A stretch of DNA of 64,000 nt from an uncultured bacterium. Its GTDB lineage: Bacteria; Chlamydiota; Chlamydiia; Chlamydiales; SM23-39. A model generated the notes under the pieces. The model worked only from the letters and a program-made list of their open reading frames with translations, ran no database searches and was not told where the DNA came from. The position numbers and the translations under genes are program-made. Shown one piece after another: positions 7,048-46,261 of this stretch (position 1 is the first letter of the stretch; each line of letters opens with the position of its first letter). The stretch is taken from the NCBI GenBank assembly GCA_964630875.1, contig CAZVXF010000006.1, positions 2,641 to 66,640 on the forward strand, given 5' to 3'.

Positions 7048-9420
7048 CTATCCCAACAAGCTTAAAAACCGATTTTTGAGCTTGTTTGGGTATACATAGA
7101 ATTGAATCGGAAGATTCTTTAGAGATTCAATAGCTGTGGTGCTTAGCCTTGGACAAGCAATGATTGTTAAATAGCGCAGCTTCGTGACTTTTGAAAAATC
7201 GGGTTGTTCTATGAGGGGAAAGTTTTCGATGTGAATTTCTAGAAGTTCGGGTTGTGAAGCAAGGAGTCGCGATAGAGCGTCATCTTGGATATGGATCCCA
7301 TCGCTTAGAAACATATTTGTACTTTTTTTGGGGAATTGACTCATGACGAAGATATCTTGATTTGCAACATTGGATAGGCTCGCGCTCCATGAAATGAGAT
7401 GAGGGGAATTTGTATAGATAGAAACAAGAGATTTGGCTTGAAGACGAGGGATGTTTTTCAGCGAAAAGGTCTTTAAATTCAAATGGATATTCGGGGGAAC
7501 AAAGTCTTCGATATCTAGATCATCAAGAAAGAGATGTTTCAGTTGGGGTAGGAAAATCTTTCGTACTCCTTCATCTGTGAGTAGATGGCAGTATGATAGG
7601 TCAAGGGTCATTAGTTTTTTACAATGGCGACTCATCCATTCAAGCGAACGGTCTGTCATTCTTGTACAATTGCGTAGACAGACTTGATGCCAATGCCCAG
7701 GATCGACATTCGTAATGGCTCCATCTCCCAAATGTCCCGAAGATAAATCGATGACAGGAACCTGTGGATGTTGATGAACATGGGAGATCCAGCTTTCCTC
7801 ATTCATACTGGGAGTCGCGATTAGAGAAAAATGACCACCTGGGGGAGCCCAAGCATTTTCTTCGGTAAGAGCATTTATTTCTTGGAAATACTCCTTGCAT
7901 TGGATGCTTAAGTCCCTCAGTTCCGGTCCGATATCATTGTTCTCGTCTGGATCTTTTTCTAAATGATAGCCTTTGTCTTGAATCACCTTCTTTTGTCCTA
8001 GAATGGCTCCTATTTGAAGCTCTTCCCTATGCATGGAAAAGTATGTGGGCATATTGACTTTGCGTAGGAGGCTCTTTCCAACACTATGATGGACTTCTTT
8101 TAGTTGAAGCATATCTAATACCGTAGGTAAGAAATCGACAAAACTAGCATTGCAATCCATCGTTTGCGGAGCGATTGATTGACCCAGGATTAAGAGTGGA
8201 AGATGAATATTTTCTTCATAGAGACTGTGATTGGTTTCAAAGTACGGCCTTCGCTCACCCATCTCTTGTCCATGATCCCCAGCAATAAATACGATTGATT
8301 TTTCTAAATTAATTCTCTCTAAAAACAGGTTTAGACAATGATCAGTGTACGCAAATGTTTGAAGGAAGTTTTGATAAGGATCATTTGTAAAAGATCCTGT
8401 AGGAGACTTCCATGGATGATGATTTGTAATCGTGAACAATGATAGAAAGGTTGGCAGATTTTGTTGATTAAGCCACTTCGCTGCATATCTAACCATACTT
8501 TCGTCATCTATACCCCATGAACTTGTCCTCGGCCCCTGAAGTTCTTCGCCACCAATCATTGTGTCAAAATCATGGCATTTGAAAAATGGATATAGATGAT
8601 CAAAAGATAAATCGCCGCTTTGAATAATCGCGTTATGGTATCCATTTTTTTTCAAAATTTGTGGTAACCCAATCATTGACATGGAACAAAAAGGCTTCAA
8701 ACTCACAGTTCTTAAATGCGCGGGTATTCCAAAGTATGCAGAGATAAAAGCTCTAAAAGTTTGCAAGCCATTTGCATGAAAGTTACGGAATAAAATGCCT
8801 TGTTTTGCCCACTTATCAAAATGAGGTGAAACAGGAATTTTTGCTCCCAAACAGCCCACATTTTTCGCTCGAAATGATTCGAGAAAAATAAAAATGATAT
8901 TTGGCTTTTCAAGTTTAACATTGAAACTTTTCTCTCCCAAAAAAGCATCCGTTTTCCGTAAAGCCGGATAAAGAGGGGAGAGCATTGTGGCGATTTCATT
9001 TGGAAAAGAAAGCTTTGGAAGATGACTTTTCCTTTTTGGCTTGTAAAAAGAAGCGAATAGAGAAAATGGGAGTAACAGACACCAAAACACAGAAGGGGGA
9101 GGGAGAAGAAAACATGACAAAAGACTTAAGAAAACACCAACACACAAAGGCTTTTTTCTTGGTATCGTTTGAAAAGAGTCGAAAAAGCATCTTGGAGATT
9201 TGATAAAAGTGAGAATGTCAGCTTGATAGCGAAAGAAACCATACCATCTAATATATAGTCCAAAGGCAAAAGGCACCCAAAGAAATCTAGGTAGAGGAGA
9301 AAGGATAAATAAGGAAAGGACAGTTAATTCTTGCGCGCTGCTGCGAAGATGAAGAGATTTGTTTTTATGCAGTTCGTACAAGCGAATGAAAAGAAAGAGG
9401 GCGAGAGTTGTACAGATCAT
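7048..9420 (-). CDS. membrane-anchored sulfatase / LTA-synthase-like enzyme fused to C-terminal CC-type leucine-rich repeats
   Basis: 790 aa. The N-terminus has several hydrophobic helices. The sulfatase core reads NIIFIFLESFRAKNVGCLG ... FTITNHHPW ... FIAGDHGQEMGE. The C-terminus reads CLRNCTRMTDRSLEWMSRHCKKLMTLDLSYCHLLTDEGV plus further LRRs (FBXL/AMN1-like). The last ~15 codons are encoded by the palindromic repeat at 7049-7096. Confidence 0.7.
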   Translation of the reverse strand: MICTTLALFLFIRLYELHKNKSLHLRSSAQELTVLSLFILSPLPRFLWVPFAFGLYIRWYGFFRYQADILTFIKSPRCFFDSFQTIPRKKPLCVGVFLSLLSCFLLPPPSVFWCLLLPFSLFASFYKPKRKSHLPKLSFPNEIATMLSPLYPALRKTDAFLGEKSFNVKLEKPNIIFIFLESFRAKNVGCLGAKIPVSPHFDKWAKQGILFRNFHANGLQTFRAFISAYFGIPAHLRTVSLKPFCSMSMIGLPQILKKNGYHNAIIQSGDLSFDHLYPFFKCHDFDTMIGGEELQGPRTSSWGIDDESMVRYAAKWLNQQNLPTFLSLFTITNHHPWKSPTGSFTNDPYQNFLQTFAYTDHCLNLFLERINLEKSIVFIAGDHGQEMGERRPYFETNHSLYEENIHLPLLILGQSIAPQTMDCNASFVDFLPTVLDMLQLKEVHHSVGKSLLRKVNMPTYFSMHREELQIGAILGQKKVIQDKGYHLEKDPDENNDIGPELRDLSIQCKEYFQEINALTEENAWAPPGGHFSLIATPSMNEESWISHVHQHPQVPVIDLSSGHLGDGAITNVDPGHWHQVCLRNCTRMTDRSLEWMSRHCKKLMTLDLSYCHLLTDEGVRKIFLPQLKHLFLDDLDIEDFVPPNIHLNLKTFSLKNIPRLQAKSLVSIYTNSPHLISWSASLSNVANQDIFVMSQFPKKSTNMFLSDGIHIQDDALSRLLASQPELLEIHIENFPLIEQPDFSKVTKLRYLTIIACPRLSTTAIESLKNLPIQFYVYPNKLKNRFLSLLG
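7049..7096. repeat. 46-nt imperfect palindrome, copy 1 of a 2-copy family
   Basis: The sequence is tatcccaacaagcttaaaaaccgatttttgagcttgtttgggtataca. A near-identical copy lies at 28901-28950 in the same orientation. The stem is CCCAACAAGCTTAAAAA/TTTTTGAGCTTGTTTGGG. Confidence 0.8.
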
Positions 9421-15457: not shown

Positions 15458-16137
15458 TGGAAATCGAAATTCTCTCGCTCTTTCCATCCTATTTTCAAGG
15501 ACCCTTTGATGTAAGCATGATCGGGAGAGCAAGGGAAAAGGGATTGGTTACAATCCGACAAATCGATATCCGCGATTTTGCTGAGAATCGAAGGAAGGTG
15601 GATGACCGACCTTATGGAGGGGGGCCAGGAATGGTTCTCTGTCCGGATCCTGTCGCTCATGCGATTCGAAGTGTGAAGCGGCGAAACTCGCGCTTGATTT
15701 ACCTATCTCCTCAAGGGAGTTTGCTGACGGCAGCGAAGTGTCAGGAATTGGCAAGTGCGGATCATCTGGTCATTCTCTGCGGTCATTATGAAGGCATTGA
15801 TGAACGGGTCATCGAGAGAGAAGGGCTGGAAGAGATTAGCATTGGCGACTATGTGTTGACCAGTGGATGTGCGGCAGCAGTTGTATTGGTTGATGCACTT
15901 TCCCGATTTGTGCCGGGAGTGATTGGCCATCCAGATGCCGTAAAAGAAGATTCTTTCCAAGATGGAATCTTTGATGCGCCTCATTACACGGGGCCAGTTG
16001 ATTTCGAGGGACTCGAAGTTCCTCATGTTCTCCGCAATGGAAACCATGCGGAAATCGCCAAATGGCGAAAAGAAAAAGCAAGGATTAAAACAAGCCGGGT
16101 TCGTCCCGATTTATTAAATGGAGTTTGTCGTGAGTAA
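15457..16137 (+). CDS. trmD: tRNA (guanine37-N1)-methyltransferase
   Basis: It contains IEILSLFPSYF, VDDRPYGGGPGMVL and LCGHYEGIDERV. Confidence 0.9.
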   Translation: MEIEILSLFPSYFQGPFDVSMIGRAREKGLVTIRQIDIRDFAENRRKVDDRPYGGGPGMVLCPDPVAHAIRSVKRRNSRLIYLSPQGSLLTAAKCQELASADHLVILCGHYEGIDERVIEREGLEEISIGDYVLTSGCAAAVVLVDALSRFVPGVIGHPDAVKEDSFQDGIFDAPHYTGPVDFEGLEVPHVLRNGNHAEIAKWRKEKARIKTSRVRPDLLNGVCRE

Positions 16138-16510
16138 AGTACCTGTGATCCAACAATTGGAATCAGAATACCTCAAAAAAGAGATCCCAACTTTTAACAT
16201 CGGGGATACTGTTTGTGTAAATACCAGAATCGTTGAAGGTGAAAAAGAGCGTGTACAAGCGTTCACAGGCACAGTTGTTGCGAAAAAAGGCTACGGCATC
16301 TCTGAAACATTCACCGTTTTCCGCACAGCTTACGGATCAAGCATGGACCGTGTATTCATGCTCCATAGCCCAAGAATTTCAAGTATTGAAGTGGTAAGAT
16401 CCGGAAAGGTCCGCCGTGCAAAACTCTATTACTTAAGAGGACGCACAGGTAAATCTGCAAAGATTAAAGAACTCTACGTTGCAGAAAAAGAAGAACCAGC
16501 AACGGTTTAA
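16118..16510 (+). CDS. rplS: 50S ribosomal protein L19
   Basis: ...IPTFNIGDTVCVNTRIVEGEKERVQAFTGTVVAKKGYGISETFTVFR...RRAKLYYLRGRTGKSAKIKE. Confidence 0.9.
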   Translation: MEFVVSKVPVIQQLESEYLKKEIPTFNIGDTVCVNTRIVEGEKERVQAFTGTVVAKKGYGISETFTVFRTAYGSSMDRVFMLHSPRISSIEVVRSGKVRRAKLYYLRGRTGKSAKIKELYVAEKEEPATV

Positions 16511-16567
16511 GCGCTTTTATTGATTCTGAGGAGAACAAACCCAAAGTTCAGGGTGTCAGTATCTTTA

Positions 16568-16732
16568 GAGGGAATTGCAACACTCCATTTGGCTCCAAAT
16601 TTGGCCTTTTTTCAGTGGATTCAATTTTTTGCAAATTGCAGAAGAGCCCAATAGGTTATGTCAATTTGCACAAATTGAACCAATGAAAAAATCATCAAAT
16701 TTTGCGCACAAAGCGAGTTTTGCAATTCCCTC
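16568..16732 (+). mobile_element. MITE-like non-autonomous element, copy 1 (165 bp, 16-nt terminal inverted repeats)
   Basis: The left end is GAGGGAATTGCAACAC and the right end is GTTTTGCAATTCCCTC. A near-identical copy lies at 45149-45314. Both flanks read TTTA, a possible target-site duplication. There are internal palindromes, for example CAATTTGcaCAAATTG. Confidence 0.75.
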
Positions 16733-16787
16733 TTTAGACAAACGAATTCCTGTTCAAAGGCGCATTTACGAATGCGCCTTTTCTGTA

Positions 16788-17213
16788 TTACTTCTTAGTA
16801 GAAAGAGCTCCGTAAGATTTTAACAATTCAATCAGCTTTTTGTTTCTTTGTGCTACTGCGATATCTAGAGGCGTATTTCCCTTTCGATCGGTTAGATTTG
16901 GATCTGCCCCATGTTCTAGCAATTTCAGGCAACGGATATAGTGAGAGCCATTCTCATCATTTCTGACGCTGCCATGTAATATTGTCTCTCCGTCGTGGTT
17001 TTTTTTATTAATGATAGAGTTTCCATCTGGCATTGTGAGCACTGCGAGAATGAAGTTAGCTGCTTTGTGATCGTAAATCCTTCTTTGATGAGACGAATAA
17101 GAATCATATCGTGAATTCCATATTTTAAATATGCGATCAGTGATGCTCGAGAAAATCTGGATTCTGGATTCTCGGATTGTTTGACGTACTATTTTTAAGC
17201 TAACTGCGAACAT
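16788..17213 (-). CDS. ankyrin-repeat protein
   Basis: DGETILHGSVRNDENGSHYIRCLKLLEHGADPNLTDRKGNTPLDIAVAQRNKKLIELLKSYGA matches the ANK consensus. Confidence 0.75.
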   Translation of the reverse strand: MFAVSLKIVRQTIRESRIQIFSSITDRIFKIWNSRYDSYSSHQRRIYDHKAANFILAVLTMPDGNSIINKKNHDGETILHGSVRNDENGSHYIRCLKLLEHGADPNLTDRKGNTPLDIAVAQRNKKLIELLKSYGALSTKK

Positions 17214-17884
17214 AACTCACTTTTTGAAAATGGATAGAATGACATGCGATGTTCAGGACATGGTCCCCATTTCTCGATTGCTTGAAGATGTTGATCGGTG
17301 CAATAACCTTTATGCTTTGCAAAGCCATAATGAGGCCATTTTTGATCAAGCTCGCACATATGTCGATCACGCAATACTTTTGCAATGATAGAGGCTGCTG
17401 CAATTGATATTGAAAGACAATCTCCGTCAACCAGGGTTTTCGAGGGTATTTCAAGTTCGGGTGCTTTATTCCCATCAATTAAGAGGAAATCTGGAACCTT
17501 AGAAAGCGCAAGTACCGCTCTTTGCATGGCAAGCATTGTCGCATGAAAGATATTGATTGCATCGATCTCATTTCTTGTTGCAATCCCAAGTCCGAAAAAT
17601 ACTCCTTCTGTATTCATGAGCTTTTTAAAGAGCGATTCTCTTTTTTCAGGCGAAAGTTGTTTGCTATCGTTCAATCCTCTGAAAATAACGCCGCTTGGCA
17701 AAATGCATGCCGCCGCAAAAACAGGTCCAGCTAAAGGACCACGACCTGCTTCATCCACTCCTGCAATAGAATGATATCCATTTTCAGTTAACTGTGTTTC
17801 ATGAACAGACATTTTAGCGATTCGACTTCGCGGTTTTTTGAGCATAAGCTTTGGAATATTACTTTTTTTGAGAAATGAAAGCAA
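17195..17884 (-). CDS. rnhB: ribonuclease HII
   Basis: It contains IAGVDEAGRGPLAGPVFAAAC ... DSKQLSPEKRE ... LIDG ... ASIIAK. Confidence 0.9.
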   Translation of the reverse strand: MLSFLKKSNIPKLMLKKPRSRIAKMSVHETQLTENGYHSIAGVDEAGRGPLAGPVFAAACILPSGVIFRGLNDSKQLSPEKRESLFKKLMNTEGVFFGLGIATRNEIDAINIFHATMLAMQRAVLALSKVPDFLLIDGNKAPELEIPSKTLVDGDCLSISIAAASIIAKVLRDRHMCELDQKWPHYGFAKHKGYCTDQHLQAIEKWGPCPEHRMSFYPFSKSELCSQLA

Positions 17885-17967
17885 TGTTCATTTGCTTCTT
17901 CGTTTTCCTCTACGATTTTAATCTCAATTAAGCCAATATATAGTGCGAACAAACTACGAATCATCAC

Positions 17968-28900: not shown

Positions 28901-28950
28901 TATTCCCAAACAAGCTCAAAAATCGGTTTTTGAGTTTGTTTGGGTATACA
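28901..28950. repeat. 48-nt imperfect palindrome, copy 2 (see 7049-7096)
   Basis: The sequence is tattcccaaacaagctcaaaaatcggtttttgagtttgtttgggtataca. It lies between the dus stop and the RecT module. Confidence 0.8.
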
Positions 28951-44837: not shown

Positions 44838-45146
44838 ATGCTCAAAAAAGTCTTTTTTCCTCTTATTATCATGATTTTATTCTGTTCTGCCTTGACGGTG
44901 CAGAATGAAACTCGGGTTCGATCGATTGATCAGCAGATTCAAGAATTGCAAGAAAAGAAATGGGGTTTTGTGGCGAAAGCAATGCGGCATGAGGATCAGG
45001 CGGATTGTTTGCAGTTCAATGACGAAACATACTTAGAAACAAGACGCTATATGCAGCTTGCTGAGGAAAATCGAGTCAAGGCAAATGCTGTCCAGCAAGA
45101 GATTGACCGCCTTCAGGCGGAAAAAGAGAAAATCCTAAAAAAATAA
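44838..45146 (+). CDS. hypothetical membrane-anchored coiled-coil protein
   Basis: The N-terminal helix is MLKKVFFPLIIMILFCSA, followed by a Q/E-rich coiled coil. Confidence 0.45.
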   Translation: MLKKVFFPLIIMILFCSALTVQNETRVRSIDQQIQELQEKKWGFVAKAMRHEDQADCLQFNDETYLETRRYMQLAEENRVKANAVQQEIDRLQAEKEKILKK

Positions 45147-45148
45147 TG

Positions 45149-45314
45149 GAGGAAATTGCAAAACTCCATTTGGCTCCAAATTTGCCCTTTTTCCATTGGA
45201 TTCAATTTTTTGCAAATTGCAGAAGAGCCCAATAGGTTATGTCAATTTGCACAAATTGAACCAATGAAAAAAATCATCAAATTTTGCGCACAAAGCGAGT
45301 TTTGCAATTCCCTC
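45149..45314 (+). mobile_element. MITE-like element, copy 2 (166 bp)
   Basis: GAGGAAATTGCAAAAC...GTTTTGCAATTCCCTC. By eye it differs from copy 1 at only a handful of positions. It fills the whole gap between two convergent genes. Confidence 0.75.
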
Positions 45315-46261
45315 TATGCAGTTTTTCGGGTCATATAGCCTTGGCGAAGCTCAGCGCTATAAATCAGCCAGAGGCCAAGGGATACGATTCCAGTTGAAAA
45401 GAAAATGACTAGCGATGGTTGCTCATTTAGGAAATACCAACTATTTAACGAAGCGAAAATAGGGCTGAAAAGTCCCATGAAAGAAAGAAACGTAGCTGTA
45501 AATTTTTTGAGAAGATATCCGTAGAGATTATAGCAAAGAACGTTAGAAATGATCGCCATAATCAGGACGCCTTGAACAAACGGGCCTAAACTTTGCGTCG
45601 CTACTGGCAATGGTGACCAGCTATCAATCATAAATGAATGGGTTAAAGCCAAGAATCCGCCAATCAGCATACTTACCCCGTTTGCCATCATAGGAGAAAT
45701 GGGGGTCGCATCTTTCTGTTCCTTTGAAGGGCTAATAATCATCCTCAGGATGATCCATCCATAAGCCGTACATGCGGAGGCTCCAACCATAGCAAGCTCT
45801 GGCCAAGAGACGAAAGGGACATGAGTCAATAACTCATCAGCGCCTTTCTGAGTGAGCAAAAGTGGGATAAATCCAACAAAACCCACACACATTCCGAGCC
45901 ATTTCCGCCCGTTCATTCTTTCTCCGAAATGAAGATAGGAAAAGAGGGCTGCAAAGAATGGAGATAGGCTATAGATAAAGCATGTTTTAGCTGCCGTTAG
46001 GGACTGTAGACCCCAGAATTCAAACGCGTTTGTCAAATAAATACTAAACACCGAAAGAAGGCCAAGCAACGCCCATTGCTTGCGACTAAATTGAAAGGAG
46101 GAGCGATTGCGGATCACAATATAGGCAAGCAGTATAGCAGCTCCCATGAGCATGCGAAATCCTGTGAGAAAGATCGGAGGGGAAAGTTCGAGAGCCATTT
46201 TCCCTAAAGAAAATACACTCGACCAAGCCGCATACATAAAAAGGACAAGAAAAAAATTCAT
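45314..46261 (-). CDS. EamA/DMT-family transporter
   Basis: 315 aa with about 10 TM helices and the duplicated EamA architecture (...FRMLMGAAILL..., ...GLFSPIFASL...). Confidence 0.7.
   Translation of the reverse strand: MNFFLVLFMYAAWSSVFSLGKMALELSPPIFLTGFRMLMGAAILLAYIVIRNRSSFQFSRKQWALLGLLSVFSIYLTNAFEFWGLQSLTAAKTCFIYSLSPFFAALFSYLHFGERMNGRKWLGMCVGFVGFIPLLLTQKGADELLTHVPFVSWPELAMVGASACTAYGWIILRMIISPSKEQKDATPISPMMANGVSMLIGGFLALTHSFMIDSWSPLPVATQSLGPFVQGVLIMAIISNVLCYNLYGYLLKKFTATFLSFMGLFSPIFASLNSWYFLNEQPSLVIFFSTGIVSLGLWLIYSAELRQGYMTRKTA

Follow-up and report, generated by a model that had tools for sequence, protein, structure and literature searches.

Small palindromic elements that lie between genes are known from several prokaryotes. 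The Correia/NEMIS elements of Neisseria are palindromic MITEs of 100-160 bp that occupy intergenic DNA, often at the ends of genes, and can affect transcripts; they carry 26-bp ends and a TA duplication, and we know of no active partner insertion sequence (IS) for them. ISs of the IS5 type encode a transposase of about 330 aa and have YTAR as their target site. MITE derivatives of IS5-group ISs have been described, e.g. mISOt1/ISOt1 of Orientia (PMC2575882), and in Methanosarcina acetivorans there are MITEs of IS1182-family ISs, with ISMac2 as the partner (Kamoun et al. 2013, PMC3852290, table of new MITEs). In a search of the literature we found no paper describing MITEs in Chlamydiae.

Here we analyse a 165-bp repeat first noticed in a 64,000-nucleotide stretch of DNA (hereafter, the window) from an uncultured member of the Chlamydiales. 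The window corresponds to C6:2641-66640 of a 1.37-Mb draft genome (G000) that comprises 52 contigs and is 91% complete; positions given without a contig are those of the window. We estimate a probability of about 0.9 that the element is a non-autonomous MITE whose terminal inverted repeats (TIRs) are those of a ~1.57-kb IS found in related Chlamydiales and encoding a DDE transposase of ~390 aa. A MITE with its IS is a well-known kind of system, of which this seems to be a new, undescribed family.

Results

The window contains two full copies of the element and one short derivative. Copy 1 (16568-16732, plus strand, 165 bp) ends on the right in an exact, inverted GAGGGAATTGCAAAAC (16717-16732) and on the left in GAGGGAATTGCAACAC (16568-16583), which differs from GAGGGAATTGCAAAAC by one mismatch, and it is bordered by the 4-bp target-site duplication (TSD) TTTA at 16564-16567 and 16733-16736. 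Its neighbours are the stop codon of rplS, 57 bp away, and the 3' end of a minus-strand ankyrin-repeat ORF, 55 bp away. Copy 2 (45149-45314, 166 bp) has the same plus-strand orientation, is 96.4% identical to copy 1 and is flanked by AATG and TATG, a match at three of four positions. It fills the gap between two convergent ORFs, beginning 2 bp after the end of the plus-strand ORF at 45146 and contributing its last base to the stop codon (45314-45316) of a minus-strand ORF of 315 aa. The third element is a mini copy of 42 bp (38699-38740, no strand assigned) in which two exact 16-bp ends enclose 10 bp; it is located 10 bp past a 90-aa ORF, its flanks (TTTA and CTCT) form no duplication, and it is probably a centre-deleted derivative. 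Comparable minis of 20-60 bp are present in other genomes, and such mini copies in general look like centre-deleted palindromes.

These observations largely agree with the initial annotation, which had reported three elements at exactly these positions, the two full ones nearly identical, copy 1 framed by TTTA, and no transposase with matching ends anywhere in the window. It had also described TIRs of 16 nt. Allowing up to two mismatches, GAGGGAATTGCAAAAC has six matches in the window, forming three inward-facing pairs, against a mean of 0.06 in shuffled windows (none of 100 shuffles reaches six); the inverted ends are therefore real, but their true length is 18 bp (…AAAACTC). Imperfect complementarity continues throughout the element, which is 76% identical to its own reverse complement.

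A genome-wide count using BLAST and a fuzzy search for the ends recovered 15 full copies, 149-166 bp long and distributed over 13 contigs, as well as truncated copies, minis and solo ends, and the exact 16-mer occurs 29 times in the source genome compared to 0 for a reversed control. The duplication seen at copy 1 recurs: a perfect 4-bp repeat flanks 10 of the 15 full copies, and at three more the flanks match at three of four positions. The sequences duplicated are TTTA, TTTC, TAAA (four times), ATTA, TTCA, AAAA and CTTA, and since they vary between copies they are not an invariant part of the element. Pairwise identity ranges from 89 to 98.7% (median 94.9%), no two copies being identical, and sub-families can be told apart by the hairpin tip and by indels of 8-9 bp in the arms. 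Coding capacity is not conserved, as these indels separate the copies and the ORFs that run across them are short and due to chance. Every copy is intergenic, many directly beside a stop codon, as the position 3' of genes reported for the window had suggested; at least nine are 7 bp or less from a stop codon, often between convergent genes, and their orientation relative to the upstream gene is unbiased (~4:4). The proposal that near-identity of the copies speaks for recent mobility was overstated, given that none are identical and that the assembly has no partner transposase (see below); because the copies are 89-99% alike, we consider the mobility not very recent.

Other repeats share the genome with the element. 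Directly upstream of copy 1, at 16520-16563, there is a partial copy of a ~65-bp repeat (…CTCGATTGATTCTGAGGAGAACAAACCCGAAGTTCAGG) that has 5-6 copies, on contigs C7, C15, C25 and C33. An unrelated, near-perfect palindrome of ~48 bp (TATACCCAAACAA.CTCAAAAA.CG.TTTTTGAG.TTGTTTGGGTATA) is found at 28905-28948 and 7055-7094 and in at least 30 further copies in the genome, e.g. at C1:21671-21718, with a longer variant (CGCTGAAATTCGGCAGCTTTCGCGCAGCTTAAAAACCGATTTTTGAG…) at several contig ends. The ends of ~25 of the 52 contigs can be sorted into around six families by the 50-nt sequences that they share, which contain short hairpins; ATGGCCTGGGAGCAATCCCTAGAAGCCTTCGCCTTTAGGCGAGGGAGCAG, for instance, occurs at six ends. 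These families probably represent unassembled multi-copy elements; one contig end we take, by eye, to be the 3' end of a 5S rRNA.

We scanned 301 genomes of the order with the Pfam model DDE_Tnp_1_6. At the first partner locus (in genome G257) an exact end lies 135 bp upstream of an open frame of 393 aa, and relatives of this protein are present in 41 of 400 genomes searched, several of them within complete elements that have the exact 16-mer at both ends. Such ISs were recovered from G148 (L175 1294-2868, 1,575 bp, TSD GAAA), G387 (L177 1203-2775, 1,573 bp, TSD TATC), G348 (L178 1029-2586, 1,558 bp, no clear TSD) and G302 (L187 856-2062, 1,207 bp, TSD AGTA), the full-length ones (1,558-1,575 bp) carrying the 16-mer at either end and a transposase gene in between. 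Among nine copies checked in G148, seven show a 4-bp duplication, one a 5-bp duplication and one none. In G007, which belongs to the genus of the source genome, an end is followed by the transposase at a contig edge and two further contig tips also bear ends, as one would expect of a multi-copy IS.

The ~390-aa partner transposase scores above the cut-off for the Pfam families DUF772 (38.7 bits) and DDE_Tnp_1 (56.4 bits) and matches DDE_Tnp_1_6 (PF13751) weakly (23.5 bits, cut-off 25.1). The top-ranking NCBIfam model is that of IS1182 (NF033551), with 80-87 bits against an equivalog cut-off of 270, followed by an IS5 model (NF033581) with 59-61 bits against a cut-off of 140; because both scores fall below the cut-offs, we describe the protein as IS1182/IS5-like and not as a demonstrated member of either family. 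The 4-bp duplication, ends that start with GA/GG and the DUF772 plus DDE_Tnp_1 architecture are traits of the IS5 group that the partner IS possesses. At least 8,000 metagenomic relatives of the transposase exist in a large protein database, mostly on contigs of 1.4-2 kb, as expected of collapsed IS copies.

Full-length ISs with the TIRs of the MITE were thus found in relatives and not in the source assembly, where neither the partner transposase nor a remnant of it was detected: a tblastn search with three partner transposases gave a best match of only E = 0.7, and a self-BLAST of the genome revealed no repeated element with the MITE ends that is at least 250 bp long. The gene may be located on a missing contig of the source organism.

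Several other candidates for the partner were rejected. An intact IS at C1:32546-33916, outside the window, encodes a DUF772 plus DDE frame of 457 aa and is a different element with its own 19-bp inverted repeats (ATAGTCGTCCCTGAAGTAA), whose arms are ~1.44 kb apart and which it does not have in common with the MITE. The transposase at C34:9140-10233, likewise outside the window, belongs to another element again, being an IS4-like DDE_Tnp_1 gene frameshifted into two frames (241 + 151 aa), with a MITE copy ~470 bp away. In other genomes, the ORFs repeatedly met with beside the ends proved to belong to the host and to encode outer-membrane proteins, GroEL, MutY and others rather than transposases. 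The three abundant DDE_Tnp_1 IS classes of G041, which is the same genome as G255, are without these ends; one of them does occur within a MITE, but simply as an insertion.

Of 401 genomes sampled from the order, 48 contain the exact 16-mer, at 1 to 208 occurrences per genome and with 0 for the reversed control; owing to kinship, such counts and E-values across related genomes are non-independent samples. Scanning a species collection with the 18-mer yielded at least 114 loci, and among the matches listed there are 84 end pairs, 20-335 bp apart and with several different interiors. In many of these pairs 4-bp direct repeats can be seen on either side, and some pairs have other elements nested inside them. 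Single 18-mer matches in Treponema, Bacteroidales and Marinilabilia do not exceed the ~17 that we estimate to arise by chance in the 596 Gb searched. A chlamydial origin is probable for some records that bear the label Verrucomicrobia or Acidobacteria, and any apparent spread across phyla needs to be treated with caution because several Verrucomicrobia-labelled records, among them OY970364.1, whose match coordinates are those of G255, are placed within the order of the source genome. OY970364.1 is a complete chromosome of 2.28 Mb, labelled 'Verrucomicrobiae' and placed in the chlamydial order, with 208 exact ends and ~100 MITEs of 182 or 257 bp but fragments only of the partner transposase; at L141:2274-4013 an IS of another class, 1,301 bp long, interrupts a MITE.

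Comparison with congeners allowed us to look at sites lacking the element. The gene pair at the C9 site abuts without it in G002, G003 and G006, and at the C7 site it is absent in G002, although divergence precludes a base-exact junction at both; since these orthologous sites are empty, the two insertions are younger than the species splits. Around copy 1 (15900-17900), for which no clean empty site emerged, rplS and rnhB are 780 bp apart compared to ~50-110 bp in five congeners, the gap containing the MITE, an ORF of 141 aa with ankyrin repeats and, at 16756-16781, a terminator that looks bidirectional. We rejected the element itself as the rplS terminator, given that this canonical terminator adjoins it. 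Between the same two genes that flank copy 2, G006 has a 165-bp family member (contig C21, L238:336-500) with 74% identity to copy 2, different flanks and an extra small membrane-protein gene alongside. It may go back to an old insertion common to both genomes or to a second, independent hit in the same gap.

The element folds as one long hairpin on either strand, with an RNA minimum free energy of -66.4 kcal/mol (z-score -8.8) for the plus strand and -67.8 kcal/mol (z-score -8.2) for the minus strand, which bears out the folding potential noted initially. In an alignment of 29 members of the ~165-bp family from many genomes, with a consensus of 43 pairs, 94.5% of the cells are paired and 29 of the 43 pairs have changed on both sides. 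Double-changed cells number 165, compared to 46±6 in 500 shuffles, none of which reaches the observed value, and to 26-57 when partners are slid by 1-3 columns, and the compensatory changes extend across genera. G·T and A·C combinations are about equally frequent (31 and 33), and this absence of strand bias suggests a constraint acting on DNA rather than on one RNA strand. Two unpaired motifs are near-invariant, the hairpin tip (…CCAA.AGG.TATGTCAA) and an internal loop in the right arm (AATCATC). A sigma-70-like promoter at the tip was considered and rejected, as TTGACA is conserved on the minus strand with no acceptable -10 and a promoter scan came back empty. In two copies (C4:33596 and C20:4682) the changes in one terminal repeat are mirrored in the other, giving GATGG…CCATC in one case and GAGGCAGTTGC at both ends in the other. 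This is a hint that a further process, e.g. conversion between the arms or selection for the hairpin, is at work.

A related organisation is found in the ISs, each end of which consists of the terminal repeat followed at once by a hairpin of 70-80 nt (DNA-fold z-scores of -7 to -11). In G255, a 113-bp MITE (L020:6713-6825) corresponds to the end hairpin of an IS of the same genome (L190:1332), extended so that the repeat is taken into the stem, which suggests that palindromisation of one IS end can give rise to MITEs of this superfamily. The 165-bp family may have originated in the same way. The 165-bp MITE and the recovered ISs have only the 16-18-bp ends in common, the MITE interior having no clear IS counterpart.

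Discussion

The element is shorter than 300 bp and devoid of conserved coding sequence, it combines TIRs with a TSD of fixed length and variable sequence, it has a partner IS, found in relatives, and orthologous sites without it exist. We favour its interpretation as a MITE because of the further copies, the recurrence of the TSDs, the lack of an Rfam match and the occurrence in relatives of ISs with the same ends. From these data we infer a cut-and-paste mechanism in which the IS transposase, supplied in trans, would bind the two GAGGGAATTGCAAAAC ends and excise the 165-bp DNA. Insertion would proceed via a 4-bp staggered cut, in the source genome usually at TAAA/TTTA, and repair of the stagger would duplicate the 4 bp. 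As the favoured target holds a stop codon and is itself duplicated, insertions at gene ends would keep both neighbouring frames closed, and closed frames are indeed seen on both sides of the C9 copy and of copy 2. A stop-containing, duplicated target, together with purifying selection in a compact genome, could explain why the surviving copies are located just 3' of genes. The long hairpin shape would be an inheritance from the IS ends with their repeat and subterminal hairpin. For the source organism, mobilisation in trans is deduced from its relatives, as its own assembly lacks the partner transposase; for this reason, and because the copies are ~5% divergent, the family is probably no longer mobile there.

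Two explanations that do without a MITE also deserve consideration. The strong fold on both strands, the stems that covary around loops near-invariant across genera and the placement of copies at gene 3' ends could all be accommodated by a structured RNA gene or a cis-regulatory RNA (small RNA, terminator or mRNA stabiliser) that is repeated by chance and whose hairpin is kept for its function as RNA. We consider this very improbable, since wobble is equal on both strands, copies show no preferred orientation to the upstream gene and an ordinary terminator already stands beside copy 1. Nor does the element match any Rfam family, a scan of the window with Rfam 15 bringing only one tRNA to the gathering threshold, which speaks for the MITE reading and against the conserved non-coding RNA gene that the initial annotation had named as an alternative; moreover, an RNA would leave unexplained both the 4-bp duplications and the ends common to a transposase-bearing IS. 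The hairpin RNA that it had suggested thus folds strongly, but a role as RNA is not favoured, although the elements may have secondary, co-opted effects at the RNA level. A hairpin spanning the whole element, compensatory change and conserved loops are likewise the signature of elements recognised by their structure, such as REP/REPIN or IS200/IS605-type palindromes, which are moved as single-stranded DNA by a hairpin-recognising HUH (Y1) transposase. Elements of that type have neither TIRs matched to a DDE IS nor a target duplication, whereas the present family regularly shows 4-bp TSDs and has the ends of a DDE-type IS, and we therefore give this explanation even less credence.

A third proposal is a variant of the MITE explanation and leaves the identity of the element unchanged. 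Covarying stems and near-invariant loops exceed what a plain DDE MITE needs, and the hairpin could be maintained by a need of the transposase or a host factor for an end that is palindromic or structured, or by intrastrand conversion through which each arm corrects the other; a structured end in transposition, host-factor binding and arm-to-arm correction are all possible. We regard such maintenance as a genuine possibility, though the less probable course. The degree of pairing, the 29 double-changed pairs with an excess of double changes over both shuffled and slid controls, the subterminal hairpin at every IS end and the matching changes in both TIRs of two copies of the source genome are in its favour; on the other hand, related sequences can beat shuffles without any constraint, and sub-lineages may each start as fresh perfect palindromes. 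The more specific idea that the transposase of the IS and the MITE recognises a structured (hairpin or cruciform) DNA end, beyond the linear 16-bp repeat, draws on the subterminal hairpins of the IS ends, on stems that covary over many genera and on the two near-invariant unpaired motifs, and is in our opinion rather doubtful. Were this so, the family would represent a DDE transposon whose ends are recognised in a structure-dependent way, or one whose arms correct each other.

Returning to the element as a MITE, its identification has practical consequences. MITEs and their partner IS break assemblies of environmental chlamydial genomes, and annotation of these genomes is confused because chance ORFs run through the elements. 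The elements are also markers of sites at which sister species differ in their insertions. With its partner IS named, what was an orphan repeat becomes a defined family of mobile elements, which ~12% of the genomes sampled from the order contain. A DDE-type MITE that combines covarying stems with invariant loops offers an inexpensive, testable system in which to ask whether the shape of the hairpin has a role in transposition; beyond that question, the element is ordinary selfish DNA.

Among described systems, the MITEs of M. acetivorans resemble the chlamydial element in their length (~160 bp), in their lack of coding sequence and in combining long inverted repeats with a direct repeat of 4 bp; in both cases MITE and partner IS have little beyond the ends in common, and the transposase of the partner joins DUF772 to a DDE domain. 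They differ in their archaeal host and in their end sequences, which are unrelated, and at 80-87 bits against a cut-off of 270 the chlamydial transposase is not a demonstrated IS1182 member. The IS5 group and its Orientia derivatives are similar with regard to the DDE_Tnp_1 domain with a DUF772 N-terminus, the GA/GG ends, the 4-bp duplication and the presence of many hairpin-forming MITE derivatives in an obligate intracellular bacterium, but the chlamydial transposase is larger (~390 aa) and reaches at most 61 bits on the NCBIfam IS5 models (cut-off 140), both ends of the chlamydial IS have long subterminal hairpins, and the target is not YTAR. With the Correia/NEMIS elements the family shares the character of small, palindromic, intergenic MITEs often found at gene ends; it is distinguished from these by a different end sequence and by a partner IS that has been identified, and both from these and from IS630-type elements by a duplication of 4 bp that is variable in sequence instead of TA.
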